Source of the DNA: an uncultured bacterium | Lineage (GTDB): Bacteria; Acidobacteriota; Aminicenantia; UBA2199 | Direction of reading: 5' to 3' | Length of the DNA stretch: 64,000 nucleotides | Assembly (NCBI GenBank): GCA_965371805.1 | Contig: CBDUZW010000005.1 | Coordinates: 28,926-92,925 of the forward strand | Part shown: positions 7,414-47,540 of the stretch, piece after piece | Layout of the letters: each line of letters opens with the position of its first letter | How positions within the stretch are numbered: position 1 is the first letter of the stretch | The notes under the pieces: model-generated | What the model was told of the DNA's origin: nothing | Databases searched by the model: none | What the model saw: only the letters and a program-made list of their open reading frames with translations | Position numbers and translations under genes: made by a program

Positions 7414-7521
7414 TTATCTCTCCATATTGATTTTTTAAGTTAAATATTAAACAAATGTTGAATATTTGTCAAGAAAATCCCCTCAATACTATAACATTTC
7501 TTCAGCTCATATTCCTACCAA

Positions 7522-8322
7522 TTATTTTTTATCCCAGACTCCGGACCTTAATCCCTCCAGATCAAGAGTTATAAACTTCATTCCCTCTTTTTTACATAAG
7601 TTTAACAGCCGGGATTTAATTTTAAGAATTTTATTAATATTGCCATCTCCAGTCTCAATTCTAATTCCCTCATCTATATATCTGACTCTTACAGGATAGA
7701 CCTCATTATCAACTAGAAAGCCCTCAATTCTGTCAAATTTTCTTATTTGTTTCTCTGAAAGATTTAAATTATAAGGAAATCTTGTTGCAAGGCAAGTTGA
7801 CGATGTAAGGTAATATTCCTCAATGTCCTCTTTTTTTAATAGATTAACTATCTCAGATGAAGTAATTTTTGCATCACTTAATGGTGATATTATTTTTAAT
7901 TCTTCGAGGGCTAAAAGTCCTGGTCTGAACTCATCCAGATCTGAAAAGGTTGTACCATCAAGAACTGCTCCGACTCCCATACTTCTTGCCTTTTCAATAA
8001 TATTATTGAAAATAAAAGATTTGCATAAATAACATCTATTCTCTGGATTTTTGCTGATTTCTTGATTATCCAGAACTTTTAATTCAATTATAATAATATC
8101 CAAATTATATTTTTTTTCAAAATACCCAACTCTTTTTTTATCATTTTCAGCAATAAAATCAGAATTTATAAAAATAATTTTTACATTTTCTTTGCCCAAT
8201 ACTTCTATAGCTGTTTTCATCATAAAGAAGGAATCTTTACCACCTGAAAAAGCGACTACAACTTCGCCAAGGTCTTTTAATATCTTACTCACATCATTGA
8301 TCTTTTTTTTTATATCAGTCAT
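7522..8322 (-). CDS. PP-loop ATP pyrophosphatase of the LarE / TIGR00268 family
   Basis: 266 aa. PP-loop VVAFSGGKDS. RPGL motif. Conserved Cys in STCLATRFPYN. VRVRYIDEGIRIE...TLDLEGLRSG matches the LarE C-terminal half. Confidence 0.65.
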   Translation of the reverse strand: MTDIKKKINDVSKILKDLGEVVVAFSGGKDSFFMMKTAIEVLGKENVKIIFINSDFIAENDKKRVGYFEKKYNLDIIIIELKVLDNQEISKNPENRCYLCKSFIFNNIIEKARSMGVGAVLDGTTFSDLDEFRPGLLALEELKIISPLSDAKITSSEIVNLLKKEDIEEYYLTSSTCLATRFPYNLNLSEKQIRKFDRIEGFLVDNEVYPVRVRYIDEGIRIETGDGNINKILKIKSRLLNLCKKEGMKFITLDLEGLRSGVWDKK

Positions 8323-14770: not shown

Positions 14771-15562
14771 ATGAGAAATTTTAAGACAGTGATCTATTCA
14801 TTTGTTTTAGTTATTCTGGGAGTTATGTTCTCAACAAATTTACCTGGAGAATCTAAAGTAAAAAAATCAAGTCCTGATCAGACTATAAAGCAGCTTAAAG
14901 CTGGAAATGAAAGGTTTGTTGAAGGAAAAAGTATACATCCACATACAAATTCTGCCCGTTTAAAACAGGCCGGGACAGAAAACCAGGGAGATCATGCTTA
15001 TGCAACTGTTATTACCTGTTCAGATTCCAGAGTACCGGTAGAGCTTTTATTTGATGCAGGCGTTATGGATATTTTTGTTATCAGGGTTGCCGGCAATGTC
15101 TGTGATGTAGATGAGATAGGATCAATAGAATATGGGCTAGCCCATGTAAATACTCCAGTACTTGTTGTTCTAGGCCACACTCAGTGTGGAGCTGTAACTG
15201 CTGTTACTCATGCTGTTCATGGAACTGGACATGCTTTAGAAAGAAATATTCCTCCTCTAGTAGATAATATTGAGCCTGCAGTACGCCGTGCGATATCTGC
15301 TCATCCTGATGTCAAAGGGAATAATATTATTCCATATGCCATAGAAGAAAATGTCTGGCAGGGTATTGAGGATCTGTTTATGGAGAGTCCTTCGACTAGA
15401 AATCTGGTAAAACAGGGCAAAACTAAGGTTGTTGGAGCTATTTATGATGTCGGCACAGGAAAGGTACATTGGCTGTCAGAATTAACAGTTCAAAACATAC
15501 TTAATAAAGTAAACTCCTCATCAAAAAGAGCAATGAATGCAATGGCAAAAAGTGGCCATTAG
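14771..15562 (+). CDS. Secreted beta-class carbonic anhydrase
   Basis: Signal peptide. Beta-CA zinc-ligand motifs CSDSRV and GHTQCGAV. 263 aa. About 88% identical to the N-terminal domain of the next ORF, a tandem duplicate. Confidence 0.75.
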   Translation: MRNFKTVIYSFVLVILGVMFSTNLPGESKVKKSSPDQTIKQLKAGNERFVEGKSIHPHTNSARLKQAGTENQGDHAYATVITCSDSRVPVELLFDAGVMDIFVIRVAGNVCDVDEIGSIEYGLAHVNTPVLVVLGHTQCGAVTAVTHAVHGTGHALERNIPPLVDNIEPAVRRAISAHPDVKGNNIIPYAIEENVWQGIEDLFMESPSTRNLVKQGKTKVVGAIYDVGTGKVHWLSELTVQNILNKVNSSSKRAMNAMAKSGH

Positions 15563-18439: not shown

Positions 18440-18928
18440 ATGGAAAAAAATGAATTAATTGATGACGGACAATTATTCACATTTATGTTGAGTAATGAAA
18501 TATATGGAATAGAAATATCTAAAGTCCGTGAGGTTATGGACTTTAAGAAGATAACAACAGTACCGAAGACGCCTGATTTCATGAAGGGCGTGATTAATCT
18601 CCGGGGAGGTGTTGTTCCTGTTATTGATCTGAGATTAAAATTCGGGATGGATGAGACAGAAAAAACCGTTGATACCTGTATCATTATTGTTGATATAACA
18701 GTTGATGGAGAAAAGACCTTTATCGGTGCTTTGGCGGATTCGGTAAAAGAGGTTATTACTATTGAGCCGGAGAATATTGAACCTGCACCAAAGATAGGGA
18801 CAAAACTCGATACGGATTTTATTAAAGGCATGGGTAAACATGATGATGAATTTGTAATAGTTCTGGATATAGAAAAAATATTTACAACAGAAGAACTTGT
18901 AGCCGTAAAAGAGATAGCTAAGGATTAA
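18440..18928 (+). CDS. cheW: Chemotaxis coupling protein CheW
   Basis: 162 aa; QLFTFMLSNEIYGIEISKVREVM...KGVINLRGGVVPVIDLRLKFG is the CheW signature. RBS AAGGAAGGAG. Confidence 0.85.
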   Translation: MEKNELIDDGQLFTFMLSNEIYGIEISKVREVMDFKKITTVPKTPDFMKGVINLRGGVVPVIDLRLKFGMDETEKTVDTCIIIVDITVDGEKTFIGALADSVKEVITIEPENIEPAPKIGTKLDTDFIKGMGKHDDEFVIVLDIEKIFTTEELVAVKEIAKD

Positions 18929-26095: not shown

Positions 26096-27775
26096 CTATT
26101 TATTCTTCATATTTTTCTTTTTAAGATTAGATATCAATTTTATAATAGCTAGAAAAGGCAGTAAAAATATAAAAATAATTCCTCCATAAGAAGTTACGGC
26201 AACATTTCTGTTTAAAATAAGATCCATTCCAAAGTTTGAGAATGGGTTATCATTAATGAGATAAGCCCAGGTTGATGATGGCCGGCTCAATCCTTCCTTT
26301 TTGGGATCAAAATCATCCAGAGACAGTTCCAAATCCTCATAGGTACTTTTTGATTTTTTTGTAATTATTGCAATTAATGTTTTAAATTCATTATGAACCT
26401 GATTTCTATATTGATCCAATGGTTGGACGCCTCCATATCTCATGAGATGTATCCCCTCTTTTATTGCAATTACCCTTTCAAGAAAGTTGCTCCATACTTG
26501 ATCTATATAAAACAAAATAACATATTTTTCTACCTCTCTAATTTTCTCTAATGAATTATTTTTCAGGAGTAAATCATACTTATTGGAACTCAATACTGAC
26601 ACATTAAATATACTAGTATTGCTCTTTAGAATATCTGTCCTTAGTTTCTCAAATATTTCCCTTTGCAACTCTGTGATATTTGAGTAATCCCATAGAGTCT
26701 TTCTGATCTCAAAATTATCGCTCTCTATTATTCTCTGAGCCCTGTTTATCTCTTTTGCAATAAAATGATCTGCTATTGCTTCCTGACTATCCCGGGGCCA
26801 GAATCTTTCTGGGATTATATTATCCAGACGATATCTTTTTATCAAATCATCATCCATACTAATGAAAAACTCGGATACTCCAGGATCCCCCTGCCTTCCG
26901 GCTCTTCCTCTCAGCTGATTATCAATCCGCCTGCTCTCATGTCTGTTTGTCCCGATGATATAAAGCCCACCTGTTTTAGATACAAATTTATATTCCTCTT
27001 TTGATCCAGCCCCCAGATGAATATCAACTCCTCTACCTGCCATATTGGTTGATATTGTTATCTTATAGGGTCTCCCTGCCTCAGCAATGATTTTTGCTTC
27101 CTGTTCATGGTTTTTTGCATTTAAAACACTATGAACGATATCTCTGTCTCTTAACTGCGAACTTAATAATTCCGATTCATAGACGCTTCCAGTCCCGATT
27201 AACACCGGCTGACCTTTTTCATTTATTTCAATTATTTTTTCTAATAAAGCCTTGTCTTTCGCTTCTTTTGAGGAATATATCCTATCCGTTTTATCTATTC
27301 TTCTATTTTTTTTATTAGGCGGAATTATCGTTATCTTAAAATTATAAAAAGAAAAAAACTCACTGGCAGCTTGAACAGCAGTAGCTGTCATACCTGAAAG
27401 ATTTGGATACAGTTTTACAAAATGCTGTATGGTTATTGAGTTAAATATGATTCCTTCTTCATTAATAAAAAGATTTTCTTTCAGTTCTACAGCCTTATGA
27501 ATACCATGAGGCCATCTTCTTTTATCAGCAATTCTTCCAGTAAATTGATCTATAATCTCAATTTTCCCATCCTTTATAATATAGTCCTTATCTTTTTCTA
27601 ATAATACCTTTGCATGCAGGGCTAAATTTACAGCGATAAAGGTTTTTTGGTTCTCAATGGCAAATATATTGGATATACTAAAATGTTTTTCAATCAGAGC
27701 CCAAATGCCGCATAGCTCACAATTCAGACTGGATCTTATACTGGCTAATGAAGTATTCGCAGGTGAACGATTCAA
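26096..27775 (-). CDS. secA: SecA homolog lacking the N-terminal ~300 aa (no NBD1 / Walker A); retains PPXD-NBD2-helical scaffold, with an atypical hydrophobic C-terminal tail
   Basis: HFSISNIFAIENQKTF aligns to SecA ~HFSVDEKSRQVNLTERG. RWPHGIHKAVELKE; NBD2 TNMAGRGVDIHLG...GGLYIIGTNRHESRRIDNQLRGRAGRQGDPGVSEFFISMDDDL; IRA1 LMRYGGVQPLDQYRNQVHNEF. All three frames upstream (27776-27840) contain stops. The C-terminus lacks the zinc finger and ends in a TM-like GGIIFIFLLPFLAIIKLI. Confidence 0.6.
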   Translation of the reverse strand: MNRSPANTSLASIRSSLNCELCGIWALIEKHFSISNIFAIENQKTFIAVNLALHAKVLLEKDKDYIIKDGKIEIIDQFTGRIADKRRWPHGIHKAVELKENLFINEEGIIFNSITIQHFVKLYPNLSGMTATAVQAASEFFSFYNFKITIIPPNKKNRRIDKTDRIYSSKEAKDKALLEKIIEINEKGQPVLIGTGSVYESELLSSQLRDRDIVHSVLNAKNHEQEAKIIAEAGRPYKITISTNMAGRGVDIHLGAGSKEEYKFVSKTGGLYIIGTNRHESRRIDNQLRGRAGRQGDPGVSEFFISMDDDLIKRYRLDNIIPERFWPRDSQEAIADHFIAKEINRAQRIIESDNFEIRKTLWDYSNITELQREIFEKLRTDILKSNTSIFNVSVLSSNKYDLLLKNNSLEKIREVEKYVILFYIDQVWSNFLERVIAIKEGIHLMRYGGVQPLDQYRNQVHNEFKTLIAIITKKSKSTYEDLELSLDDFDPKKEGLSRPSSTWAYLINDNPFSNFGMDLILNRNVAVTSYGGIIFIFLLPFLAIIKLISNLKKKNMKNK

Positions 27776-27799
27776 AACCAGCGGGATCGGCTTTCAATT

Positions 27800-28274
27800 A
27801 AACAGTCAGATAACCAAACAATTATTTTTTCATATATTTTTCAGAAACACAGGAGCAATTTTTTATGATGAAGAAAACCCCTTTGCCGGACGTGCTAATA
27901 GGGCGTCACTTTCTCTTGATTATCAGCCATTTGAAAAAATCAGCAACAGTATAAGTCTTTCTTACTCAAATTTTATCAGAAGCTCAGATAGTGAAATAGA
28001 ATATGATTATACTATTGTGAGAAATTATACAACTTTTCAATTGAATAAATACCTGTTTTTCAGAGGTATTGTTGAATATAATTTTTATAAAAAAATTCTC
28101 CAATTGGATTTTCTGGCATCCTTCACCTATATACCCGGTACCGTAGTGCATATAGGCTATGGATCAATTTTTGAAAAGCAGAAATGGGATGACAATAATT
28201 ATGTTAATAGTGATAGATTCATGGAAAATCATAGAGCATTCTTTTTTAAGGTTTCATACCTGTGGAGACTATAA
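27800..28274 (+). pseudogene. C-terminal fragment of an outer-membrane beta-barrel protein (no N-terminus or signal peptide)
   Basis: Alternating beta-strand pattern YDYTIVRNYTTFQLN / FFRGIVEYNFY / LDFLASFTYIPGTVVHIGYGSIF / AFFFKVSYLWRL. The 5' part of the tracked ORF 27657..28274 is antisense to the secA fragment. Confidence 0.3.
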
Positions 28275-31938: not shown

Positions 31939-33090
31939 TTATTTTAATAATTCTCCAATAATTTCTGCTACTCTATTTAATTGTTTATTTGTTATTGTGA
32001 GGGGTGGCAAAAGTCTTAATACTGTTGATCCGGCTGGTAATGTTAAAACGCCTTGTTCAATAAGTTTTAAAATATAGGATTTCACTTTCTCTTTCAGTTC
32101 AATTCCTACCATTAGTCCAAGTCCTCTGATATCTCTCACTTTTGACATATTTTTTTGCTTTAGAATATCAAATAGATAAACCCCTTTTTCTTTTGCACTT
32201 TTTATCAACTCCTTATCTTCAATATAGTTAAGTGTTGCCAGCCCAGCAGCACAGGCTAATGGATTTCCACCAAAGGTACTCCCATGATTTCCAAGTGGAG
32301 GCTTAATAATATCTGAACATAGAACTGCTCCCATGGGCATACCGCCGGCAATCCCTTTAGCTATACATAAGATATCAGGCTCCAACTCATGATGATCAGA
32401 AGCAAACATCTCCCCAGTTCTACCAAAGCCAGTTTGAATTTCATCAATAATTAATAAAACACCCATATCTGTACATAGATTTCTCAATTGTTTAATAAAT
32501 GAATTATCCGCAACATTTACTCCTCCCTCACCCTGAACAATTTCAATTACCACTGCTGCTGTATTTTCATTTATTTTCTCTTTAAAACTCTCTATATTAT
32601 TAAAAGATGCAAAGCTGATATTCGGAAGAAGTGGCTCAAAAGGTTTTCTATAAGCAGGATTAAAGGTGATACTCAATGATCCATGAGTCCTTCCATGAAA
32701 GCCCCTTTTAGCTGCTACAAAATGATTTTTCCCAGTCGTAAATTTTGCAAACTTAATAGCTGCCTCAATACTCTCAGTACCGGAATTACAGAGAAAAACC
32801 CGGGTTAAATTTTCCGGAGCAGAAGATATCAACTTCTCCATAAACCGCCCCCTGATGTCATTATAAAATGTCCCGGGACAGGAAATGAGCTCATCGACCT
32901 GGGTTTTCAAGGCCTCAGAAATGTACGGATTATTATGCCCAATATTCATCACACCATGTCCTCCCACACAATCAATATACTCCTTTCCGTTTTCATCCCA
33001 AACCAGTGCCGAATCACCTTTAACTAAGGCTAGGTCTCTTTTTGGATAAACATTAAAGGAATATTTGTCTTCAAGAATTCTCATATTCAT
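31939..33090 (-). CDS. lysJ: Class-III aminotransferase, LysJ/ArgD-type
   Basis: 383 aa. ...LVKGDSALVWDENGKEYIDCVGGHGVMNIGHNNPYISEALKTQ... PLP-Lys region. Overlaps the lysZ start by 4 nt. Confidence 0.75.
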   Translation of the reverse strand: MNMRILEDKYSFNVYPKRDLALVKGDSALVWDENGKEYIDCVGGHGVMNIGHNNPYISEALKTQVDELISCPGTFYNDIRGRFMEKLISSAPENLTRVFLCNSGTESIEAAIKFAKFTTGKNHFVAAKRGFHGRTHGSLSITFNPAYRKPFEPLLPNISFASFNNIESFKEKINENTAAVVIEIVQGEGGVNVADNSFIKQLRNLCTDMGVLLIIDEIQTGFGRTGEMFASDHHELEPDILCIAKGIAGGMPMGAVLCSDIIKPPLGNHGSTFGGNPLACAAGLATLNYIEDKELIKSAKEKGVYLFDILKQKNMSKVRDIRGLGLMVGIELKEKVKSYILKLIEQGVLTLPAGSTVLRLLPPLTITNKQLNRVAEIIGELLK

Positions 33091-33890
33091 TCTATTACCG
33101 TACCCACAAATGCAAAAGCACCTTCAAGTGGTTTTTCTATCCTTCCATCAGCTATTATCACCCTCTTTACCTCATTTTCAAACATTTTTTTTAATGAATA
33201 AAGTTTCCGTTTGATCCTTCCTTTTGATTCCGCTTCCCAGGTTGTTAACTCTTCTCTATTCATTCTTTTTACTACCATATTTTCATTATATGGATCTTTC
33301 AAAAAACCTTTTGCTTCTATTAGATGAACGACTGTCTCTGATTTGAGACTCTTCTGTAATAAAGATACGATATCATCATTTTCACTATTGATGGCATAAC
33401 CGTTTTCATCAATAATCGGAACCGTAAGGACAGGCATATAGCCCTGATCAAGAAGGCTATGTAGTAGCTTAATATTTATTTTGTCAGGTTTACCGGAAAA
33501 ATCTCTTAGAATCTTCTTCTTTCCATTTTCCATGATCTTGATTCCCTTATTTCTTCTCCCCTGGATCAATCTTCCATCAAGCCCGCATAAACCTATGGCA
33601 TTAATAGCCTTTTGTTGACAAAGTTCAACTATCCTTTTATTTCGAATACCGGCATAAGCCATCATTTGTAGATCTATCAATTCCTGATCAGAAACCACAC
33701 TACTATAACCTGAAAGGGATGTTACCACATTTTTTGTATATCCTGTTTTTTCAGCAAGTTCATCCCTTAGACTATTTGCACCATGCACAATTATACACCT
33801 CTTGTTTATCCCCTTTAGTCCTTCAATAATACCTTCCAGGTTTATGCTGGCTCCTCCACCAATTTTAATTATCATTATCTTATCTTCCAT
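33087..33890 (-). CDS. lysZ: Amino-acid kinase LysZ (ArgB-like, LysW-substrate kinase)
   Basis: 267 aa. MIIKIGGG...VHGANS...GLCGLDGRLIQGRRNKGIKIMENGKKKIL...GRIKRKL...VKRVIIADGRIEKPL is collinear with Thermus LysZ. Confidence 0.75.
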   Translation of the reverse strand: MEDKIMIIKIGGGASINLEGIIEGLKGINKRCIIVHGANSLRDELAEKTGYTKNVVTSLSGYSSVVSDQELIDLQMMAYAGIRNKRIVELCQQKAINAIGLCGLDGRLIQGRRNKGIKIMENGKKKILRDFSGKPDKINIKLLHSLLDQGYMPVLTVPIIDENGYAINSENDDIVSLLQKSLKSETVVHLIEAKGFLKDPYNENMVVKRMNREELTTWEAESKGRIKRKLYSLKKMFENEVKRVIIADGRIEKPLEGAFAFVGTVIE

Positions 33891-33893
33891 CTC

Positions 33894-34540
33894 TTATCTC
33901 CTTTCTATCACCAGAATTGTTTTATTCTTTACCGGTTCCCATCCACTGTCCATAGGGAACTTCTCTGAACAGACTATAATAGAAGAGCCTGTCTCTTTTT
34001 TCTGAAGAGAGAAGTATTCTGTATCCTCATTATAAAAACTATTAATATAAATATTCTCTGAATCTAACATTATATAGTTCATTGCTCTAATATATTCTGT
34101 TCTTTTTTCTATTATCTTATTGCTTTTCTTTATGGCTTCCAGTAATCCGTTTTTATCAAATGTTTTTATAAAATTAAATATTTTTTCTGCCCCAATACGG
34201 CCCTTTACTTTAAGTTTAACCCCTCTTAGCTCCCCATTAAAAGCAAAACTATAATCATCTTCAAGAAAAGGCATATTATGTTCAATAGGTTTTAATACAT
34301 CATTAAACGCACTTCGTGCATGCACCAGTATCAAACTTGATCTTCCAAAGAGATCGAGATTATCTTCCCATATAGGATTCAGGTTATGATAAAAGTTTCG
34401 TACATTATTTTTATAATAACATATGCCCCATCCATCTCCCTGATATTCTTTACTGGTTTTTGCTATCTCTGCAAATTTATGTAAATATTCCGCTATATCA
34501 AATTCATTTTCTGAATTTATTAATAAAAGTCTGCACATAG
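33894..34540 (-). CDS. Class-II glutamine amidotransferase-type Ntn hydrolase (YafJ/EgtC-like, GATase_4)
   Basis: Probable start M-C-R-L-L-L, with the nucleophile Cys directly after Met, at 34538. The tracked ORF extends to 34595. GDGWGICYY motif. About 215 aa. Gaps of 8 nt to lysY and 3 nt to lysZ. Confidence 0.6.
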
Positions 34541-34548
34541 AAGTTCTT

Positions 34549-35631
34549 TTAAACTGGATGCAGTCCCGGAAATTCCAGTCCTGTTCTTTCATCAAAACCC
34601 ATCATTATATTTAATGCCTGTAATGCCTGTCCTGCAGCTCCCTTCATAAGATTGTCTATTGCACCAATCACAATTAAACGATTTGTTCCTTTATCCTTTA
34701 CAAATCCAATATCACAATAATTGGACCCGGCCAATAGTTTTGGTTCAGGTAATCTATAGATCCCATCTCCCTCCTTTACGATCCTTATAAATGGCTCTGC
34801 CCCATAATGTTTCCTGTATATTTTCCAGATCGCCTTCTCATCCAGATCCTCTTTCAAAAAAACATGGGACAGAGATTGGATACCTCTTACCATATCGATA
34901 GAGGTAGCCGAAAAATGAATTTTGAAATCCTCAGAAAACCCGAGTTCCTGATCCATTTCAGCAATATGCCGATGTCCGGAAGGTTTATAAGTCCTAATGG
35001 CACCACTTTTTTCAGGATGATGAGATGCAGCTGAATGAAGATTGCCCCCTTCACTGGACCCAACCTTTACCTCGGTTACAGTTCTGTCCGTCACAACTAT
35101 TCCTTCTTTATATAAAGGATAGAGTGGAAGAATAGTCGCGGTAGCATTGCATCCAGCGCTTGATATATATTTTGCTTCTTTCATTTCTTCTCTATACAGT
35201 TCAGGTATTCCGTAAACAAAATCTTTAAGCAGGTCCAGTTCCAGATGGGGAGTATCATTCCATTTTTCATAATGAGATGGATTTTTTGCCCTGAAATCCC
35301 CACTCAGATCAATGATATTTGGCGCCAATTTCATATATTTTCTTATATTTTTTTGAGAATTACCATGAGGCAGGGATAGAAATAACAGGTCACAAGTTTC
35401 CAGATCATCTATGGAACAAAATTTCAAATTTGTGATTTTTCTTAGATTCGGATGGATTTTTGAGACCGCTTTTCCAACATATCTTTCAGATGTAACTTGA
35501 GCAATCTCTGCATATGGATGAAAAAGCAATAATCTTAGCAACTCACCTCCAGCATAACCGGATCCTCCAGCTATGGCAATCTTCAGTTTTCTATCTGTTT
35601 CCATTATTCTCACGAGCTTCATTAACAACAT
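34549..35631 (-). CDS. lysY: N-acetyl-gamma-glutamyl-phosphate-reductase-like LysY/ArgC
   Basis: [34 protein letters not shown]. Catalytic-Cys region SSAGCNATA. 360 aa. Confidence 0.8.
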
Positions 35632-36448
35632 AAGCTGCTATCAACTCAGGAATATTAACACCTGTCGGCTTAATACTATTCTTAAATTCCATAGTATAGT
35701 TTACCTCACAAACCATTAATTCTTGATCAGACTCAAAAAGATCAACGGCAACAATGCCTCCTCCGACTGCCTTTGCAGCATCCAGAGATAGTTTTTCAAG
35801 CTCGGGAGTCAATGGACAATTACTTGCAACAGCACCTTTTGCAGTGTTGGTTATCCAATGATCAGATGTTCTGTATATTGCAGCAATACATTTATCTCCA
35901 ACCACAAAGCTACGTATATCTCTTCCTTTTTTTTGAACAAATTTCTGTATATAAAAGATTGAATGATGATATGTACCCAGGACAGTTTTATGCTCAAGGA
36001 TCGCTTCAGCACTGTCCTTATCATTTATTTTTGAGAGAAGCCTTCCCCAGGATCCAACTGCAGGTTTTAATACCACCGGATATCCCATCTCCTCTATTGC
36101 CTCCAGAGCTGATTGTTCAGTAAATGCAATTCTTAGCTCAGGCTGTGCTACTCCATATTCTTTAAGAGAAATAGACGTAAGCAGTTTGTCTCCACAAACA
36201 GTCGCCACATCAGAACTATTAATACATTTTATTCCCATACTCTCGAATAATCTTAATGCATGAAGCGCTCTGGAGTGGTTTATGCTCCTTTCTATCACTG
36301 CATCAAAATCAAAACCATTTTTCCCAAGATTAAATACAACCTCACGGTCATCAACCATAACGATTTCAATATCTTCAAATTTTTTAAACTCTTCCAATAG
36401 TAATTTTTCCTCTTTTCTTATAAGAGAATGTAAAAATCCGATTTTCAT
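35591..36448 (-). CDS. lysX: ATP-grasp ligase LysX (RimK-like; ligates substrate to the LysW C-terminal Glu)
   Basis: ...[95 protein letters not shown]...[29 protein letters not shown] is near-collinear with Thermus LysX. Confidence 0.85.
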
Positions 36449-36459
36449 TTTATCTCCTT

Positions 36460-37623
36460 TCAGGCAGAGACCTTTTGTTTTGTCTCATTTAATATATACC
36501 TGACAATTATTTGTAATTCTGAATTCTCAACAACTCTACCCCGTTGTCCTACTTCTTTAACTTTATTTAAAACCTTTTCCAAAAGACTTATGTCGGGATC
36601 TGAATAACCAATCCCTTCCATTGAGTATCTAACTGCAGCAATTCCTGACATATGATCCAGCGATATAACAGGTTCTTTTCCCAGTAACTCTGGTGAAAGA
36701 CTCTGGTAATGTATTGGATTACGAATCGCTGCCTGAGTATGCACACCAGCGCAATGAGTAAATGCATTCTTCCCTGTAACTGGAAAATTAACAGGAATCG
36801 GGATTCTCGAATACCTGCTGACCAGATCATATAGTTCAACCAGTCTTTCAAAATCCCATTTTTTATCATAGCCAAAATCTGTTGCCAGAACAGCAAGTAA
36901 GGTAGCCAGATCAACTATCCCAGCCCTCTCTCCTAATCCCATAACTGATGTATCTATAATAGTTGCTCCTCCCCTAAGGCCATCAATCGCATTTGCAAGC
37001 GCCAAACCTCTATCATTATGGCAATGAACTGCAATTTCCGGTTTTAGCCCCATCGAGAAAAGCCCGTCTTTTAACCTAGCTACATAATCACACATGTTTT
37101 TTTTTGTACCCGGGACCATATAGCCGGTTGTATCTGCAACACTTATAATGTCCGCTCCAGCTTTAACCGCTTCTGACGCAGCAAAGATAACATTGTCAAA
37201 TTGAGATCTTACAGTATCTTCCGGTGTATATCTGATAAGTATTTCCGGATTTGTCTCTTTTGTATATTTGATAATATCAGTAATTTTTTCAACAACATCC
37301 TTTAATTTTTTTGAGGATTCTTTTAATCTTAGATCGGAGACACAATAAAATATTCCGATAAAATCAACCCCGCATTTTAGAGCAAGATCAACATCTTTTC
37401 TTAAAGACCGTGAATGTGCCCCTGTTCTTGCTTTCAATTTAAGTTTAGAAATTCCTTTTACTGCATTTAAGATCTCATTTGTTACTGCCGGATGACCGGT
37501 TTCAATGATATCAACACCTATTTCATTTAGAAGTTCTGCAATTTTAGTTTTTATATGAACATCAAAATAAACACCGGGAGTCTGTTCCCCCTCCCGAAGT
37601 GTTGAATCAAGTATTTTAACCAT
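36460..37623 (-). CDS. HMGL-family synthase, homocitrate-synthase-like (LeuA/NifV/HCS family)
   Basis: [15 protein letters not shown]...; [35 protein letters not shown]; 387 aa with no LeuA regulatory domain. Confidence 0.7.
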
Positions 37624-37796
37624 TATTCACCCCAATCTTCATCTTCAGTAGGTGCCTCTTGGACTTTAAACGGATTTGTACCAATAACTTCAAGCTCAGT
37701 TCCACAATCTGTACATTCGATTAATTCTCCTGAAACAGTACCATCTGACATCTCCAATAAAAAATCGCATACCGGACATTCTGTTTGATTACTCAT
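37623..37796 (-). CDS. lysW: Amino-group carrier protein LysW
   Basis: 57-aa ORF, below the track threshold: MSNQTECPVCDFLLEMSDGTVSGELIECTDCGTELEVIGTNPFKVQEAPTEDEDWGE. CxxC...CxxC zinc ribbon plus the hallmark acidic C-terminus ending EDWGE. The TAATG stop/start overlaps the downstream gene. Confidence 0.8.
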   Translation of the reverse strand: MSNQTECPVCDFLLEMSDGTVSGELIECTDCGTELEVIGTNPFKVQEAPTEDEDWGE

Positions 37797-37882
37797 AATA
37801 TTCTCCTTTATTTATAACTTATTTGTTTTAGTCTCAATACCTTTCATATTGAAAAACCATTTTAAGTATAAATAGGATTTTG

Positions 37883-37908
37883 TGTCAAAAAAAACGAATA
37901 TTTTGACA
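37883..37908. promoter_or_regulatory. Palindrome TGTCAAAA-N10-TTTTGACA in the divergent lysW / ACT-gene promoter region
   Basis: Perfect 8-bp inverted arms. Each arm contains TTGACA and could serve as the -35 box of one of the two divergent promoters. Confidence 0.4.
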
Positions 37909-37937: not shown

Positions 37938-38591
37938 ATGATAACAATTTCAGAAGAGATAAAAAAGATTGTTCTGTCCTCTCCGTTCCTGGAAGAGGGA
38001 ATACTGAAAGGGATTATAAACCTGTCTGCATTGGCCAGGGAGATAAAACCTCAAATAGAAAAAACACTTATGAGAAAATTGAGTGACAGTGCTATTTTAA
38101 TGGCATTGAAAAGATTTTCTGATAACCTGGAGGGAGAGACATTTATTGCTATTGAAACAAAAAAAAAATTAGGCGATATTTCTGTAAGATCCAATCTTAT
38201 GGAATTTACTTTTCTAAAGTCAGATACTATTTTTGAAAAGCAGAAACTTCTAATGATGGGAATAGAGAACAAAAGAGATAATTTTTTTACTTTTACACAG
38301 GGAATCTATGAGCTTACAATAATATCCGGAACCGATCTCGAAGAGCAGATTGAAGATGTTTTTAAAGGAGAAACCCTTAAAAAAAAACTCTTAAACTTGT
38401 CAGCCATCATTATAAAACTCCCCCCTGAATCTGTAGATCAGCCGGGGGTTCACTACTCCATACTAAAACAACTAGCATGGAACAAAATAAATGTAGTTGA
38501 AGTAGTATCAACATTTACCGAGTTCATTGTCATTTTAAGCAGAAAGGACATAGACAGAGCATTCTCAATCCTGCTCAATTTCCTGTCATAA
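37938..38591 (+). CDS. Small ACT-domain-like ligand-binding protein (uncertain)
   Basis: 217 aa. C-terminal LNLSAIIIKLPPESVDQPGVHYSILKQLAWNKINVVEVVS resembles an aspartokinase-type ACT fold. No DNA-binding domain recognised. Confidence 0.35.
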   Translation: MITISEEIKKIVLSSPFLEEGILKGIINLSALAREIKPQIEKTLMRKLSDSAILMALKRFSDNLEGETFIAIETKKKLGDISVRSNLMEFTFLKSDTIFEKQKLLMMGIENKRDNFFTFTQGIYELTIISGTDLEEQIEDVFKGETLKKKLLNLSAIIIKLPPESVDQPGVHYSILKQLAWNKINVVEVVSTFTEFIVILSRKDIDRAFSILLNFLS

Positions 38592-38798: not shown

Positions 38799-39149
38799 CA
38801 CATAAATAGTATAAAGAACAACAAACTTTTTTCTGAATATAATGGTGCTTTTATTGAAAATTATGTGGCTACTGAACTAATTAAAACAAGATATGAAGAA
38901 TTGTATTATTGGACAAGTGAACACAAAGCAGAAGTAGATTTTATTATATCTAATAATGACAATGAGATTATTCCAATAGAGGTAAAAAGTGGGTTTAGCA
39001 GGGAAAAGAAGAGTTTAAAAGTTTATATTGAAAATTACAAACCAAAAATATCTATAAGACTATCACCAAGAAATTTTACAAAAGATGGTAGTTTTGCAAA
39101 TATTCCTCTTTATGCAATTCCTTTTCTTACTTGGAAGAATAAATATTGA
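38799..39149 (+). pseudogene. C-terminal remnant of a DUF4143-type AAA ATPase gene
   Basis: In frame from 38799 without a start: ...LFSEYNGAFIENYVATELIKTRYEELYYWTSEHKAEVDFIISNNDNEIIPIEVKSG... is the typical C-terminus of AAA_14+DUF4143 proteins. The N-terminal ~250 aa, including the P-loop, is absent. Confidence 0.5.
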
Positions 39150-40363: not shown

Positions 40364-42940
40364 ATGATAAAACAACAAAACAAAATCTATCCATTTACAA
40401 TTTTATCTATCCTCTTTATCCTTTTCTCAAATCTGCCTGCTCAAAATAATACAATAAATTTCCAACATCTATCTTTGGAAGACGGATTGTCGCATAGCAC
40501 TATAAATTGCATTTTTCAAGATAGCAGGGGATTTTTATGGTTTGGAACAGATGATGGTTTAAACAGATATGACGGTTATAATTTTAAAATATTCTTAAAT
40601 GATCCTGAAAAACCTGGAACAATCTCCAGTAATCGCATTAGAGGAATATGCGAAGATGAGGATGGGAATCTCTGGATTGGGACATTTGGTGGATTAAATA
40701 CATTTAATATTAGAACAGGGCGCTTTGCCTCCTATACATTTCATCCTGATATAGAATCAAGACAAAATATAATATGGTCAATGGCTATAAATGATGGATT
40801 CCTATGGGTCGGGACTGAATCCGGATTGATAAAGTTTAATACTAAATCAAAAAAATATAATAACTATAAATTAAATTCAACTCAGTCCAAATTTCAAAGG
40901 AAAACTTTCATAACCATAGTATACATAGATAACTCAAAAAAAATCTGGATTGGAACTAAACATAACGGTTTATATACATTTAAAGAAACAACAAATTCAA
41001 TTGTTCCTTTTAAATATAAACATTCAAAAAACCCGAGTTTCAGAAGTATTAGAAATCTATTCAAAGACCAATCCGGCATATTATGGATCGGCACAGAGTA
41101 TGGAGGTTTAATCAAATATAACAGTCAAAATCAAGAACCTACTTTTTACAAACATATCCCCGGGATTAAGGGATCTATAAGCAGTAATGACATACAATCG
41201 ATATTTGGAACAAAATCAGGAGATCTGTGGATTGGGACCAATGCAAATGGCTTAAACAAGTATAATTCTGCAACAAACAGTTTCACCCTGTACGAACATG
41301 ATCCCAAAAATGCAAACAGCATTAGTCATAACAGTATTCTTTCAATGTATGAGGACAATTCAGGGGTTTTATGGATTGGAACTTATGCAGGAGGGATAAA
41401 CACACTTAACAAAAGTAAAAAAAGATTCGATGTCTTAAAAAATGAACCTGGGAATCCAATCAGCCTCAGTAACAGTACAGTATTTTCAGTTTATGAAGAG
41501 TCTAATGGAATAATCTGGATAGGCACTATTACAGGTTTAAACAGATATGATAGTAAGAATAATCTTTTTAAAGTATATAGTCACGACAAAAACAACCCTA
41601 AAAGTATTAGTCATAATGTTGCAAGAGCTATTTATAAAGATGATAAAGGAAATTTATGGATAGGAACTGATAATGGACTAAATAAATTTAATAGAGAGGA
41701 TGAGACATTTTCTATCTATAGAAACGCCATTACCATTAAGAACTATTCATCCAATTGGCAGAACATAATCCGTTCAATTATTGCTGATAATTCAGGAAAA
41801 CTTTGGATAGGAACACAAAATGGGATCTGTACATTTGATGAAAAAAAAGAACAATTTACATATTATAGATATGATGAAAATAATCAAAACAGTCTTTCAT
41901 CAAATACAGTCAGAGTATTATTAAATGACAGAGACGGTCTTATATGGATAGGCACTGAGAATGGATTAAATAAATTTAATCCAGAAACAAAAGAATTTTT
42001 CATTTATAAACACAACCCCAAAAACCCGCATAGCATTAGTAGTGATAATATCTATAGTATCTTAGAAGATAAAAAAGGTCTGATTTGGATTGGAACAAAA
42101 AAAGGATTAAATGCTTTAAACAGAAAAACAGGTCTATTTACAAACTATACAGAACATGACGGATTGGGAAATGATATTGTATACTGCATTCTTGAATCTA
42201 ACGACAATAATTTATGGCTCAGTACTGATAAAGGCATAACAAAGGCATATAATAGCTTAAAAAACATTGACTCATCAGTAAAAGATCAAAAATTGAAATT
42301 TAGAAATTTTGATATAAAAGATGGTGTGCAGGGACATGAGTTTAATTCAGGCGCCTCATTCAAAAGTAATAAGGGAACTTTGTACTTTGGAGGAATGAAT
42401 GGATTAAATATATTTGACCCGGAAAAAATAATGACTGATAACAGCTATATTCCGCCTGTAGTCTTAACTGAGTTCAGATTATTTTCTGAAAAAATATCCA
42501 TACACTCAAGGATCGATGGAAAAACCATATTAAGTAAGCCAATAGAATTGACAGAAAAAATAGTACTTCCTTATAATGCAAACTATATCTCCTTTAAATT
42601 CACAGCATTAGATTTCACTTGCACAAAAAACAATAAATTTGCCTATATGATGAAAGGATTAAGCAATGAATGGCACTACCTTGGCACAAAAAACGAACTT
42701 GATTTTCATCTTTCTCCAGGAACATTTATTTTAAACATAAAAGGTTCAAATAGTGACCATGTCTGGAATGAAAATGGAGTATCGATAACAATCATTATAA
42801 ATCCCCCTTTTTGGACTACAATATGGTTTAGAATAGCCGTTTCCATGTTTGTCTTTTTAGTGATATTTTCACTATACAGAGTCAGAATATACAATATTAA
42901 AAAAAAAATATCCAACTCAGCAACCATAATGAACAATTAA
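40364..42940 (+). CDS. Hybrid sensor, part 1: signal-Reg_prop repeats-Y_Y_Y-TM; terminated prematurely after an A10 homopolymer (42899..42908)
   Basis: GLSHSTINCIFQDSRGFLWFGTDDGLNRYDG and 13 or more further propeller repeats. Y_Y_Y segment and TM TIWFRIAVSMFVFLVIF. The stop falls 11 codons after the A10 tract. Confidence 0.7.
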   Translation: MIKQQNKIYPFTILSILFILFSNLPAQNNTINFQHLSLEDGLSHSTINCIFQDSRGFLWFGTDDGLNRYDGYNFKIFLNDPEKPGTISSNRIRGICEDEDGNLWIGTFGGLNTFNIRTGRFASYTFHPDIESRQNIIWSMAINDGFLWVGTESGLIKFNTKSKKYNNYKLNSTQSKFQRKTFITIVYIDNSKKIWIGTKHNGLYTFKETTNSIVPFKYKHSKNPSFRSIRNLFKDQSGILWIGTEYGGLIKYNSQNQEPTFYKHIPGIKGSISSNDIQSIFGTKSGDLWIGTNANGLNKYNSATNSFTLYEHDPKNANSISHNSILSMYEDNSGVLWIGTYAGGINTLNKSKKRFDVLKNEPGNPISLSNSTVFSVYEESNGIIWIGTITGLNRYDSKNNLFKVYSHDKNNPKSISHNVARAIYKDDKGNLWIGTDNGLNKFNREDETFSIYRNAITIKNYSSNWQNIIRSIIADNSGKLWIGTQNGICTFDEKKEQFTYYRYDENNQNSLSSNTVRVLLNDRDGLIWIGTENGLNKFNPETKEFFIYKHNPKNPHSISSDNIYSILEDKKGLIWIGTKKGLNALNRKTGLFTNYTEHDGLGNDIVYCILESNDNNLWLSTDKGITKAYNSLKNIDSSVKDQKLKFRNFDIKDGVQGHEFNSGASFKSNKGTLYFGGMNGLNIFDPEKIMTDNSYIPPVVLTEFRLFSEKISIHSRIDGKTILSKPIELTEKIVLPYNANYISFKFTALDFTCTKNNKFAYMMKGLSNEWHYLGTKNELDFHLSPGTFILNIKGSNSDHVWNENGVSITIIINPPFWTTIWFRIAVSMFVFLVIFSLYRVRIYNIKKKISNSATIMNN

Positions 42941-46013: not shown

Positions 46014-47540
46014 ATGGGAGTAATATCTATGAAAAAACTTATACCTATAGCTTTTATTATCTGCTCTTTTCTATTTCCTACTACCGGATATGGAAAAACT
46101 AATTCTGTAGTTAAAAAGATCATTGAAATTGGAAAAAACGATAACAGAACAATGAAACATCTTGATGTGCTCTGTCATAGATTTGGTGGTAGACCTATTG
46201 GATCAGCTGCTTATGATAATGCAGCAGAATGGGTCGGTAAAAAGTTCAAGGAATGGGGTATGAAGGTTGAATATGATGAGGCAGGCACACTCCCTGTTGG
46301 TTTTAACAGAGGACATTGGACCGGAAAAATGACATCTCCCAGAACTATGCACTTGCATTTTGCAACCCCCTCCTATACAGCTGGTACAAAAGGCAAGCAG
46401 GTTGCTCCGGCAGTCTTGGAACCTAAGGATGAAAAAGAATTTCAAAGAAAAAAAAAAAAGATCAATGGCGCATGGGTATTGCTGAACTTTCCTGAGATCG
46501 ACAAAACAAAAAAAGTTAAAAAAGTTAATTATTGGGAACGGAGAAAAATAAGAGAGGAAGAGAGAAAAAAAATACAGAAAAGAATAGATAAACTGGAAAA
46601 AGCAGGTGCTTTAGGCGTAATTGAACCAGCAAAGATCCCAATACAGGCAATGTATAATAAAGAAGTTTTTAAATGGAAATCATGGAATGATCTTCCAAAT
46701 ATTTGTCAAATCAAATTAGATGAACATCAATTTGCAGAAATCAAACAAATGATAATAGAAAGACAGAGAGTCGTTCTGGAAATTGACATCCGAAATTATT
46801 TTAAAATGGGTCCGGTAAAATATCATAATGTAATTGGCATTATTCCCGGGACAAAATATCCAAATGAATATGTAATATTAGGGGGCCATCTGGATTCATA
46901 TGATGTTGCAACCGGAGCAGTCGATAATGGTAATGGGACAACAACATCAATGGAAGCAGCAAGGTTAATTATGGCTGCCGGTGGGAAACCTAAACGGACA
47001 ATTCTTATCTGTTTATGGGCAGGAGAAGAGTTTGGACTTCTAGGTTCCCAGCATTGGGTAAAAAAATACAAAGGTAAATTAGCAAAAATTTCAGCAATGT
47101 TCAACCGGGACGGTGGACCAACTGTACCGGAAAGTTTAAGTGTTTCAGAAGCAATGTGGAAAGATATGGAAAAAATTTGTAAGCCTGTAAACAACATAAA
47201 CCCGGACTTTCCTTTTAAACTAACCAAAAGAAAACCACGAACAAGACCAAAAAATATAGGCGGTTCCGACCATGTCCCATTTGCAATGAAAGGAGTTCCA
47301 TCAATGGGTTTTAGAAATGGTGATCCTAAAGGTTATGATTTCCGTTACAGTGAGATCTGGCATACAGAAAATGATTATTATCAGAAAAGCATTGCCGAAT
47401 ACCAAAACCATGCTTCCATAGTTAATGCAGTCGTCATTTATGGTATTGCAAACCTGAAACATCAATTGGATAGAACCGGCTACTATCTTCCTGACGAAAA
47501 ACCAGTTAAAAAGAAAAAAAAGAAAGAAAAAAAGAACTAA
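46014..47540 (+). CDS. M28-family peptidase (aminopeptidase) with signal peptide
   Basis: HNVIGIIPGTKYPNEYVILGGHLDSYDVATGAVDNGNGTTTSMEAARLI...WAGEEFGLLGSQHW. The zinc ligands H, D, E and the EE motif are present. Confidence 0.75.
   Translation: MGVISMKKLIPIAFIICSFLFPTTGYGKTNSVVKKIIEIGKNDNRTMKHLDVLCHRFGGRPIGSAAYDNAAEWVGKKFKEWGMKVEYDEAGTLPVGFNRGHWTGKMTSPRTMHLHFATPSYTAGTKGKQVAPAVLEPKDEKEFQRKKKKINGAWVLLNFPEIDKTKKVKKVNYWERRKIREEERKKIQKRIDKLEKAGALGVIEPAKIPIQAMYNKEVFKWKSWNDLPNICQIKLDEHQFAEIKQMIIERQRVVLEIDIRNYFKMGPVKYHNVIGIIPGTKYPNEYVILGGHLDSYDVATGAVDNGNGTTTSMEAARLIMAAGGKPKRTILICLWAGEEFGLLGSQHWVKKYKGKLAKISAMFNRDGGPTVPESLSVSEAMWKDMEKICKPVNNINPDFPFKLTKRKPRTRPKNIGGSDHVPFAMKGVPSMGFRNGDPKGYDFRYSEIWHTENDYYQKSIAEYQNHASIVNAVVIYGIANLKHQLDRTGYYLPDEKPVKKKKKKEKKN

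Follow-up and report, generated by a model that had tools for sequence, protein, structure and literature searches.

A stand-alone Ntn hydrolase encoded within bacterial LysW operons is a candidate for releasing lysine from its carrier protein

The initial annotation of the window, i.e., the whole 64-kb stretch of Aminicenantia DNA analyzed here, had described seven tightly packed minus-strand ORFs at 31939–37796, and all seven were recovered at these positions. They run in the order lysW, a homocitrate synthase-like gene (HCS), lysX, lysY, an Ntn hydrolase gene, lysZ, and lysJ, with a 1-nt overlap between lysW and HCS, an 11-nt gap between HCS and lysX, an overlap between lysX and lysY, gaps of 10 nt and 3 nt on the lysY and lysZ sides of the Ntn hydrolase gene, and a 4-nt overlap between lysZ and lysJ. 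Dozens of unrelated genomes share this gene order with varying flanking genes, and the arrangement is far beyond chance. The lysW gene (37623–37796) encodes a 57-aa zinc-ribbon amino-group carrier protein with the C terminus EDEDWGE, which matches PF21344 (E = 1e-14) and TIGR01206 (56.3 bits versus a cutoff of 53.2) and aligns end to end with the solved LysW proteins of Thermus (3wwl), T. kodakarensis (5k2m), and S. tokodaii (3vpb). The lysX product (35591–36448) is an ATP-grasp ligase that scores 342 against TIGR02144 (LysX_arch; cutoff 276) and is predicted to load an amino acid onto the γ-carboxylate of the LysW C terminus, while lysZ (33087–33890) encodes a [LysW]-aminoadipate kinase of the AA_kinase family (NF010659, 228.8 versus a cutoff of 223). 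The proposal that this is a genuine LysW operon holds. The lysY gene (34549–35631) encodes an ArgC-type [LysW]-aminoadipyl-phosphate reductase with Semialdhyde_dh and Semialdhyde_dhC_1 domains (TIGR01850 [argC], 377 bits); its homologues are 348 aa long, and translation probably begins at either 35604 or 35622. Finally, lysJ (31939–33090) encodes a class-III aminotransferase (Aminotran_3, E = 3e-113) annotated as [LysW]-aminoadipate semialdehyde transaminase, whose top NCBIfam match, LysJ_Th_th (446 bits), falls under the equivalog cutoff, and which scores 441 against the argD subfamily model (cutoff 410).

The homocitrate synthase-like enzyme (36460–37623; 387 aa, HMGL-like plus HCS_D2 domains) lacks the LeuA regulatory domain and reaches no NCBIfam equivalog cutoff. 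Homocitrate synthases take the top four places among its PDB matches, with 6ktq (233 bits) followed by 2ztj, 3a9i, and 3ivs, and the IPMS structure 3rmj (150 bits) ranks behind them. Similarly, LysX was closest to the LysX structures of S. tokodaii (3vpd, 282 bits) and Thermus (1uc8, 254 bits), well ahead of ArgX (3vpb, 160 bits). LysX and LysZ both score above cutoff in NCBIfam models of the lysine pathway, and the LysZ model names aminoadipate. Judged by these similarities, the product of the operon is most likely lysine, made via α-aminoadipate.

Upstream of lysW, an AAAGGAG ribosome-binding site precedes the ATG, and a promoter-like TTGACA-18-TAAAAT element (37859–37888, minus strand) matches 11 of 12 consensus positions, although it is only suggestive, since the regional count of such sites does not exceed the shuffled expectation. 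On the plus strand, a divergent gene (37938–38591) encodes a 217-aa protein with a weak C-terminal ACT-like match (ACT_7, E = 8e-4, under the cutoff) and no match in an NCBIfam search. In 28 further loci, drawn from diverse lineages, a homologue of this gene (32–53% identity) is arranged head-to-head with lysW; the product may be a partner of the LysW operon or its regulator.

The gene between lysY and lysZ (33894–34538) encodes a 214-aa protein beginning with Met-Cys-Arg; we placed its start at the conserved Met-Cys, while the longest ORF reaches 34595. Its earlier description as a stand-alone, class-II-GATase/EgtC-like Ntn hydrolase was borne out by a PF13230 (GATase_4) score of 29.4 against a cutoff of 23, and the AF2 model (pLDDT 89.8) gave EgtC (4zfl) as the top predicted fold match (TM 0.81). 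EgtC, the Ntn amidohydrolase of the ergothioneine pathway (4zfj, 4zfk, 4zfl), is likewise a stand-alone single domain of ~215–230 aa with a Met-Cys-Arg start, and it cleaves a γ-glutamyl amide with a bulky leaving group. However, identity to EgtC is only 13–15%, the score against the EgtC model TIGR03442 is 38 bits (cutoff 219), and no egt genes were found near the operon. Similarity to E. coli YafJ was detected by hhalign with 94.5% probability. Conserved residues of the family are C2, R3, H73, R75, N101, G102, G116, and K119, and the catalytic Cys-Arg-Asn-Gly set is intact: with YafJ and the glutaminase domains of PurF and GlmS, the protein shares the Ntn fold, Cys1 (C2), the α-carboxylate-binding Arg (R75), and the Asn-Gly oxyanion hole (N101-G102). 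Unlike these enzymes, family members occur exclusively in the context of LysW operons and, in the YafJ alignment, carry Gly116 in place of the Asp of the T-D-S-E motif (Gly in 103 of 105 family representatives), an Asp that EgtC, which acts on a small molecule whose glutamyl α-amine is free, retains (STVDSA). This assignment comes from the YafJ alignment, and the hhalign alignment to EgtC is offset by four residues; in the EgtC register, the aligned family position is likewise not a conserved acid. We take the Asp to be the binder of glutamine's free α-amino group, as D127 in PurF and D123 in GlmS. Its loss would fit a glutamyl residue whose α-amine is peptide bonded, e.g., at the C terminus of a protein. 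Family members are ~214-aa stand-alone proteins throughout, and neither a synthase domain nor a synthase partner was found; apparent fusions of the gene to lysY or lysZ proved to be frameshift artefacts with the neighboring gene. The family's pI (median 7.6) is not consistently basic, which counts against a LysW partner insofar as a basic surface might suit the very acidic LysW.

Relatives of the hydrolase are encoded by at least 547 GTDB species. In LysW neighborhoods the gene is strikingly conserved: the 80 best genome loci all have it, as do 22 of the 23 Gln-type metagenome operons (those with a Gln-ended LysW, see below) that could be assessed. Among the best 80 loci, which come from Ignavibacteriota, Calditrichota, Bacteroidota, KSB1, Thermodesulfobacteriota/Deltaproteobacteria, Binatia, Planctomycetales, Gemmatimonadota, Aminicenantia, and Gammaproteobacteria, the gene lies between lysY and lysZ in every case where both neighbors can be seen; altogether it occurs inside LysW operons of more than 10 bacterial phyla. 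Distant members (27–36% identity) are still found in LysW operons, at positions that are sometimes shifted: one locus has the order W-Ntn-X-Y-Z (L161) and another W-HCS-X-Y-Z-J-Ntn (L160, 27% identity), in which the hydrolase gene takes the position of LysK in Pyrococcus. Pairwise distances of the hydrolase track those of LysX, LysY, LysZ, and LysJ (r = 0.82–0.87), and it has diverged to a similar extent. In Delta/Binatia-type operons HCS is missing and an extra aminotransferase is present. A literature search returned no publication on an Ntn gene in LysW operons; for the homologous locus of Caldithrix abyssi, only LysWXZYJ and Hcs are named, in a genome paper that points to non-orthologous displacement as a possibility in lysine synthesis (PMC5317091).

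The LysW lysine systems of Thermus thermophilus and of Thermococcales/Sulfolobales have the same EDWGE zinc-ribbon carrier, four carrier-dependent enzymes, and homocitrate synthase, the canonical cluster of Pyrococcus furiosus being HCS-HacA-HacB-W-X-Y-Z-J-M20. In contrast, the operon described here lacks the M20 enzyme LysK, has the Ntn hydrolase gene between lysY and lysZ, and is not clustered with homoaconitase or HICDH genes; some operons of this type also encode a Gln-ended carrier. LysZ is ~30% identical to LysZ of control operons, as against 49–61% among Ntn-type genome loci. The reported absence of LysK was reproduced: neither the operon nor the 64-kb window holds an M20 ArgE/LysK-type ORF by phmmer with E. 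coli ArgE, a probe that detects Thermus LysK (5xoy), and the only related peptidase in the window is an M28 aminopeptidase on the opposite strand (46014–47540). Of the 80 genome loci, 79 have no M20 gene within 10 kb, and no Gln-type locus has one. Chloroflexi-type LysW operons (L194, L196, L197) have neither an in-cluster M20 gene nor the Ntn gene, so absence of M20 from an operon is weak evidence alone. The findings that the initial annotation had named as contrary to its reading (a small ORF outside the LysW models, a hydrolase with a synthase partner and no conservation beside LysW genes, or a lysK gene adjoining the operon) did not turn up within the 64-kb window, and the small ORF does match LysW models.

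A LysW ending in EDWGQ instead of EDWGE, and its link to the Ntn gene, is a new observation. We found 72 genuine LysW genes with an EEEDWGQ end (43 clusters at 80% identity) in loci of 26–72% GC. The Ntn gene was present in 22 of the 23 assessable Gln-type operons versus 0 of 6 control operons (Fisher p = 1.5e-5), while Gln-ended LysW occurred in 4 of 67 Ntn-type genome loci versus 0 of 116 intact controls from 120 sampled (Fisher p = 0.017), the controls in both comparisons not being an unbiased sample. The one exception, L123, has unrelated genes at the expected Ntn position, and a few Gln-type LysW genes belong to argG-argH-lysW-argX-like clusters whose visible part has no Ntn gene. LysX should be unable to charge a Gln-ended LysW before deamidation.

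From the observed gene content, synteny, residues, and co-occurrence, we infer a substrate and two roles for the hydrolase: on balance, it is probably a LysW C-terminal γ-glutamyl-amide hydrolase that both releases lysine and matures Gln-ended LysW. Lysine would be made from 2-oxoglutarate by the α-aminoadipate route, with intermediates tethered to LysW. Homocitrate synthase would start the chain, with homoaconitase, homoisocitrate dehydrogenase, and aminoadipate transaminase presumably encoded elsewhere; LysX would ligate the α-amino group of aminoadipate to the γ-carboxylate of the LysW C-terminal Glu, and LysZ, LysY, and LysJ would convert tethered aminoadipate to tethered lysine. Cys1 of the hydrolase, exposed once Met is removed, would then attack the γ-carbonyl of the C-terminal glutamyl amide and expel the amine (lysine), and hydrolysis of the γ-glutamyl thioester would regenerate LysW-Glu. 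The same activity on a C-terminal Gln, the simplest such amide, would mature LysW to its Glu form by one deamidation.

Alternatively, the hydrolase may only mature or repair the LysW C terminus, acting on Gln-ended LysW, on LysW-Gln formed from activated LysW and ammonia, or on mis-charged carrier, while lysine release could fall to an M20 ArgE/LysK homologue encoded at another locus. The Gln-type LysW/Ntn association supports action on the LysW C terminus but is by itself no demonstration of lysine release, and other bacteria, namely those with the three Chloroflexi-type operons above, have LysK outside the cluster. Arginine loci of C. abyssi hold scattered homologues of other pathway proteins (PMC5317091), and Thermus LysK also acts on arginine-pathway substrates (PMC12998189), and one M20 enzyme might therefore suffice for the two pathways. 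Yet 63 of 67 (~94%) Ntn-type operons retain the Ntn gene with a Glu-ended LysW, the hydrolase diverges about as much as the core enzymes, more than expected of an occasional repair function, and the occurrence of the operon in more than 10 phyla is easiest to understand if every LysW-specific step is encoded. We regard a purely maturing or repairing role as rather unlikely, though a serious competitor.

The family's Pfam GATase_4 membership, its conserved Cys-Arg-Asn-Gly glutaminase set, and the database name of its relatives ("class II glutamine amidotransferase") would suit a free-glutamine glutaminase or small-molecule γ-glutamyl amidase that leaves LysW untouched and provides ammonia or a glutamate donor for LysJ or aminoadipate transaminase. 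This is improbable given a ~214-aa stand-alone protein family-wide with no synthase domain or partner and a near-invariant Gly in place of the α-amino-binding Asp (YafJ alignment); moreover, a general glutaminase would not be expected to be confined to LysW operons or paired with Gln-ended LysW, and we know of no ammonia-requiring step in the aminoadipate/LysW route. Least probable of all, in our estimate, is a secondary-metabolite-type carrier pathway, as in Streptomyces, in which the hydrolase tailors or off-loads a non-proteinogenic amino acid. Carrier-protein pathways to non-proteinogenic amino acids exist (PMC11726168 and PMC9303977), the HCS stays under all NCBIfam equivalog cutoffs, and Delta/Binatia-type operons have another aminotransferase and no HCS. 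However, the gene set is exactly that of primary metabolism (W, X, Z, Y, and J plus HCS), LysX and LysZ exceed lysine-model cutoffs, the characterized enzymes nearest to HCS and LysX are lysine enzymes, no tailoring enzymes were found nearby, and a housekeeping role agrees with the wide spread of one conserved cassette among free-living anaerobes and MAGs.

If the Ntn hydrolase does release lysine, it would catalyze the same reaction as that of LysK (5xoy), hydrolysis of the amide between the γ-carboxyl of the LysW C-terminal Glu and the α-amino group of lysine. LysK is a metal-dependent M20 enzyme, whereas the protein described here has an unrelated Ntn fold with an N-terminal Cys; it would thus be a metal-independent, non-homologous analogue of LysK, and its activity on Gln would let lineages carry Gln-ended LysW genes.

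The seven tightly packed genes that the initial annotation had placed in an operon for LysW, a small amino-group carrier protein (AmCP), all lie on the minus strand, just as it described them, and each of its seven family assignments was supported by profile searches against Pfam and NCBIfam. The small ORF taken for lysW (37623-37796) indeed matches the LysW models PF21344 (E = 1e-14) and TIGR01206 (56.3 vs. a cutoff of 53.2), and its product is a small carrier of the zinc-ribbon type; an acidic ...EDWGE tail forms its C terminus, and alignment with 3wwl, 5k2m, and 3vpb extends to the final residue. It is followed by a homocitrate-synthase-like gene (36460-37623; HMGL-like and HCS_D2 domains), by lysX (35591-36448), which passes the LysX equivalog model TIGR02144 (342 vs. 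276), and by an ArgC-type lysY (34549-35631; TIGR01850 score 377). The gene for a class-II-amidotransferase-type Ntn hydrolase comes next (33894-34538, counted from a conserved Met-Cys); its match to Pfam GATase_4 (PF13230; 29.4 bits vs. a gathering threshold of 23) covers the N-terminal half of the protein only. The operon closes with lysZ (33087-33890), which passes the "[LysW]-aminoadipate kinase" model NF010659 (229 vs. 223), and lysJ (31939-33090), of the ArgD/LysJ subfamily (argD subfamily model, 441 vs. 410). Junctions between genes are small overlaps or gaps of 3-11 nt, and lysW is preceded by a TTGACA-18-TAAAAT site and an AAAGGAG ribosome-binding site, while an Rfam search found no riboswitch, leader, or other element near the operon.

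A convergent SpoIIE phosphatase gene borders the operon on one side and a divergent gene for a 217-aa protein (37938-38591, plus strand) on the other. The latter protein shows just a weak ACT-like match and none in NCBIfam; its gene stands head-to-head with lysW in 28 loci from diverse lineages, at 32-53% identity. The protein could be a regulator of the operon or its partner.

We then considered which product the operon might make. The best PDB matches of the synthase are homocitrate synthases (6ktq at 233 bits, then 2ztj and 3ivs), with isopropylmalate synthase 3rmj at 150 bits, and LysX matches Sulfolobus tokodaii LysX at 282 bits, Thermus LysX at 254 bits, and ArgX at 160 bits. Since both proteins are thus closest to lysine-pathway enzymes, we read the operon as serving lysine synthesis via alpha-aminoadipate, with the middle steps presumably encoded elsewhere. 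In line with the initial annotation, no homoaconitase (aconitase-family) or homoisocitrate dehydrogenase (Iso_dh) gene was detected among the window ORFs scanned with Pfam; these steps and that of the transaminase may be encoded elsewhere in the genome or shared with enzymes of leucine synthesis or the TCA cycle.

The operon agrees with the known LysW lysine pathway in the carrier and in LysX, LysZ, LysY, and LysJ, but differs in LysK, the M20 metallopeptidase that normally frees lysine from LysW. The reported lack of LysK in the operon extends to the whole 64-kb window: there was no M20 deacylase among 39 further ORFs scanned with Pfam across it (six of them also against NCBIfam), and phmmer with E. 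coli ArgE, a probe that detects Thermus LysK (5xoy), gave no match within it. An M28 peptidase (46014-47540) was rejected as a LysK substitute, being of another family, on the opposite strand, 8 kb distant, and without an ArgE match. Among 80 homologous genome loci, the ArgE probe found no ArgE/LysK-type ORF in 79, and the sole M20-like ORF lies 8.5 kb off on the opposite strand.

Several other genes of the window deserve mention in their own right. A beta-carbonic anhydrase gene (14771-15562, plus strand) is followed by one for a protein of 916 aa in which a carbonic-anhydrase domain is fused to HAMP and MCP signalling domains (15581-18331, plus) and by cheW (18440-18928, plus); the fusion protein is a chemoreceptor whose carbonic-anhydrase-like sensor possibly responds to CO2 or bicarbonate. 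The SecA ORF (26096-27775, minus) has just 559 aa, without the N-terminal motor domain, and the GEGKT Walker A motif occurs nowhere in the window. It overlaps an opposite-strand ORF of 205 aa (27657-28274, plus), which has no Pfam match and resembles, by eye, the C-terminal portion of an outer-membrane protein; what lies at ~27.7 kb is either a pair of truncated genes, a rearrangement, or a junction of the assembly. A 94-aa ORF (38865-39149, plus) matches the C-terminal end of DUF4143 alone (profile positions 115-160) and is probably what is left of a larger gene with DUF4143. Three large proteins combine a two-component-regulator propeller with Y_Y_Y (2040-4778, minus; 40364-42940, plus; 53709-57065, minus), one of them with a LuxR output and one with a histidine-kinase output; proteins of this kind are typical of the FCB group.

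To return to the Ntn protein, a homology search retrieved 1720 proteins, and a scan of one genome per species found a relative in at least 547 GTDB species. Named homologues belong to Ignavibacteria, Melioribacter, Calditrichaeota, and Bacteroidota and are labeled in databases solely as "class II glutamine amidotransferase." Two homologous loci share the order lysW-homocitrate synthase-lysX-lysY-Ntn-lysZ-lysJ within unrelated flanks. Comparison of the ORFs called across the 80 best loci with the window proteins placed the Ntn gene inside a LysW operon in all 80, and between lysY and lysZ wherever both flanks were visible, bearing out the co-occurrence that the initial annotation had proposed to look for. 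The taxa represented include Rosettibacter primus (a cultured isolate), Rhodothermaceae, Cytophagia, KSB1, Planctomycetales, Gemmatimonadota, Aminicenantia, Gammaproteobacteria, and, through complete chromosomes, Thermodesulfobacteriota and Binatia. Pairwise distances of the Ntn proteins correlate with those of LysX, LysY, LysZ, and LysJ (r = 0.82-0.87), and the Ntn protein has diverged about as much as LysJ and LysZ.

The operons vary in their remaining genes. Loci of the FCB group have the homocitrate synthase gene after lysW; Ntn loci of the Delta/Binatia type are without it and have an additional class-III aminotransferase upstream. This aminotransferase, of 473 aa and ~31% identical to LysJ, is encoded just upstream of lysW (for example, in L055 at 6326-7747) and occupies the same position in L065, L067, L070, L072, L073, L077, and L081 (Thermodesulfobacteriota/Deltaproteobacteria/Binatia-type). 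Two lysX paralogues occur in L011, L043, L080, and L115, a pairing that hints at dual use in lysine and arginine synthesis.

The family consists of single-domain proteins of ~214 aa that begin Met-Cys-Arg, a start kept in 29/29 aligned homologues, and among the 94 representatives with a residue there, 93 have the Cys that would serve as N-terminal nucleophile. A public entry for the identical protein has 232 aa (33894-34595, minus strand), its start lying 18 codons ahead of this Met-Cys. Such a start would leave the nucleophilic Cys inside the chain, and almost every homologue opens with MCR; the longer version is therefore probably an annotation error or, alternatively, a sign of a short propeptide. 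R75 is present in 105/105 representatives, N101 in 103, and G102 in 102, with further conservation at H73, G113, and G116-A-E/Q-K119. Searching the PDB with the single sequence yielded chance matches only, and a profile search was required; no family member was among the PDB structures searched, and there is neither a solved structure nor a specific NCBIfam model for the family. The AF2 model, a confident one (pLDDT 89.8, pTM 0.90), has the Ntn alpha-beta-beta-alpha fold, and its best Foldseek matches are EgtC structures (TM 0.81), followed by the YafJ-like 1te5 and 3mdn and then by the glutaminase domains of PurF and GlmS, all with a probability of 1.0. EgtC is a stand-alone gamma-glutamyl-amide hydrolase, and the Ntn protein likewise stands alone. 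However, it scores just 38.1 bits against the EgtC model TIGR03442 (cutoff, 218.65), and the egtA/B/D neighborhood of EgtC is missing, the neighbors being LysW-pathway genes in every locus.

With the class-II amidotransferases (the GATase_4 family and its Ntn fold), the protein shares the N-terminal Cys, the Arg, and the Asn-Gly oxyanion hole, but it lacks the motif Asp and a synthase partner. R75 and N101-G102 align with HIRQ/HNGQ of YafJ and VRSA/HNG of EgtC, and in PurF the corresponding class of residue, Arg73, holds the substrate alpha-carboxylate (PMC7953260). In an hhalign comparison with E. coli YafJ (probability, 94.5%), G-R-I-G-A-E-K of the family pairs with G-E-T-D-S-E-K, so that the Asp of the T-D-S-E motif falls on Gly116, which is Gly in 103/105 representatives, down to 28% identity. 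The alignment to EgtC (sequence verified vs. 4zfk) is offset by four residues in the Gly116 helix relative to that with YafJ, and the family position aligned in this register likewise has no conserved acid. With hhalign, neither the GlmS nor the PurF glutaminase domain of E. coli could be usefully aligned to the family, only YafJ and EgtC being alignable, and a YafJ query did not retrieve EgtC from the PDB. In PurF (D127) and GlmS (D123), the motif Asp binds the free alpha-ammonium of glutamine. Since a protein C terminus has a free alpha-carboxylate but an acylated alpha-amine, the Arg would be needed and the Asp would not; the retention of one and loss of the other are therefore what would be expected, from the alignments, of an enzyme acting on the C-terminal glutamyl of a protein. 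No coupled synthase or acceptor domain was seen across the family, and apparent Rosetta-stone fusions were rejected, the longer entries being frameshift read-throughs into lysY or lysZ. Whole-protein pI has a median of 7.6 (range, 5.3-9.5), so that a basic surface for the acidic LysW is not seen at this level; this speaks neither for nor against LysW binding.

The carrier itself provided a further line of evidence. Four of 67 Ntn-type genome loci, each from a different lineage, encode a LysW that ends ...EEDWGQ-stop rather than ...EDWGE-stop (L001, 6530-6703; L008, 6658-6825; L048, 6618-6785; L066, 1812-2045). A metagenome scan for EEEDWGQ-stop gave 105 stretches, and 72 genuine zinc-ribbon LysW genes of this Gln type were found among the 80 of them listed, corresponding to 65 distinct sequences, which form 43 clusters at 80% identity, with a locus GC of 26-72%. 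The Ntn gene is present in 22 of these Gln-type loci and missing from one assessable locus (i.e., one whose lysY is complete and followed by 700 nt or more); an M20 gene is present in none. Among the 22, the Ntn gene follows lysJ in L160, which is the LysK position in Pyrococcus, and lysW in L161. In the exception, L123, the space between lysY and lysZ is taken up by genes for a CarboxypepD_reg protein and a secreted alpha/beta-hydrolase. A few Gln-type genes sit in argG-argH-lysW-lysX-like clusters with no lysY, lysZ, or lysJ in view and are uninformative. As controls, we sampled 120 LysW representatives nearest those of Thermus, Thermococcus, and Sulfolobus (three-sequence profile): none of the 116 intact ones is Gln-ended, all ending in Glu (115 as EDWGE); the remaining four carry truncations or frameshifts. 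In six control operons, the Ntn gene was found in 0/6 and an in-cluster M20 gene in two. The Gln type is thus enriched in Ntn loci relative to control LysW (Fisher p = 0.017), as is the Ntn gene in Gln-type relative to control operons (Fisher p = 1.5e-5), although neither sampling was unbiased. A gene-encoded C-terminal Gln is new among the amino-group carrier proteins.

The simplest account of these sequence and model data is that the Ntn enzyme would hydrolyze gamma-amides on the C-terminal glutamyl residue of LysW. With lysine as the leaving group, it would perform the LysK reaction, LysW-gamma-Lys -> LysW + lysine; with ammonia, it would mature the Gln-ended LysW. Since LysX, an ATP-grasp ligase, needs the gamma-carboxylate, a Gln-ended carrier should be inert, and remain uncharged, until its gamma-amide is hydrolyzed; it would be a pro-carrier, chargeable only once deamidated. 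An ammonia-releasing activity would explain why the Glu-to-Gln change in LysW has been repeatedly tolerated in exactly the Ntn operons. The main rival would confine the enzyme to such maturation or repair and leave lysine release to an M20 enzyme elsewhere in the genome. Chloroflexi-type LysW operons (L194, L196, and L197) have no LysK in the cluster, so LysK can sit outside, and the genome paper of Caldithrix abyssi mentions pathway homologues in arginine loci (PMC5317091). However, ~94% of the Ntn-type operons have an ordinary Glu-ended LysW and still keep the gene. For this reason, and because the constraint on the Ntn gene is comparable to that on the core enzymes and the cassette has spread as a unit through more than 10 phyla, the release role is favored, though unproven.

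Support for the idea in the initial annotation that the Ntn enzyme replaces LysK is comparative and structural, coming from the operon context, the intact catalytic set, and the M20-free loci; release by a distant M20 enzyme competes with it. Less likely, the protein could be a free-glutamine glutaminase or a secondary-metabolite tailoring enzyme. We regard it as an even bet that the family is a new one of metal-free Ntn cysteine hydrolases specific for gamma-amides on a carrier protein's C-terminal glutamyl, a nonhomologous counterpart of LysK in a widespread bacterial form of the LysW pathway and a "carrier maturase" for Gln-ended LysW. As to LysK, the proposed role would be that of a functional analogue and not of a homologue.

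Our literature search found no paper linking LysW/AmCP with an Ntn hydrolase, GATase, EgtC, or YafJ; one match on "lysW" was the name of an unrelated transporter. The C. abyssi genome paper flags possible nonorthologous displacement in lysine synthesis (PMC5317091), the same gap, and its supplement does not mention LysK or genes of the locus. If the proposal is correct, it would supply a clean pair of analogous enzymes, an M20 metallohydrolase and an Ntn thiol hydrolase, for one reaction, the first class-II-amidotransferase-fold enzyme known to take a protein C terminus as its glutaminyl substrate, and a function for a large protein set now labeled just "class II glutamine amidotransferase." Gln-terminated LysW offers a natural and simple assay substrate, and a metal-independent carrier-release enzyme may be of use in engineered carrier-protein pathways. 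The last step of LysW-dependent lysine synthesis would be filled in Ignavibacteriota, Calditrichota, many Bacteroidota, Desulfobacterota, Binatia, and others, organisms that auxotrophy predictions based on lysK would wrongly score as lysine auxotrophs.
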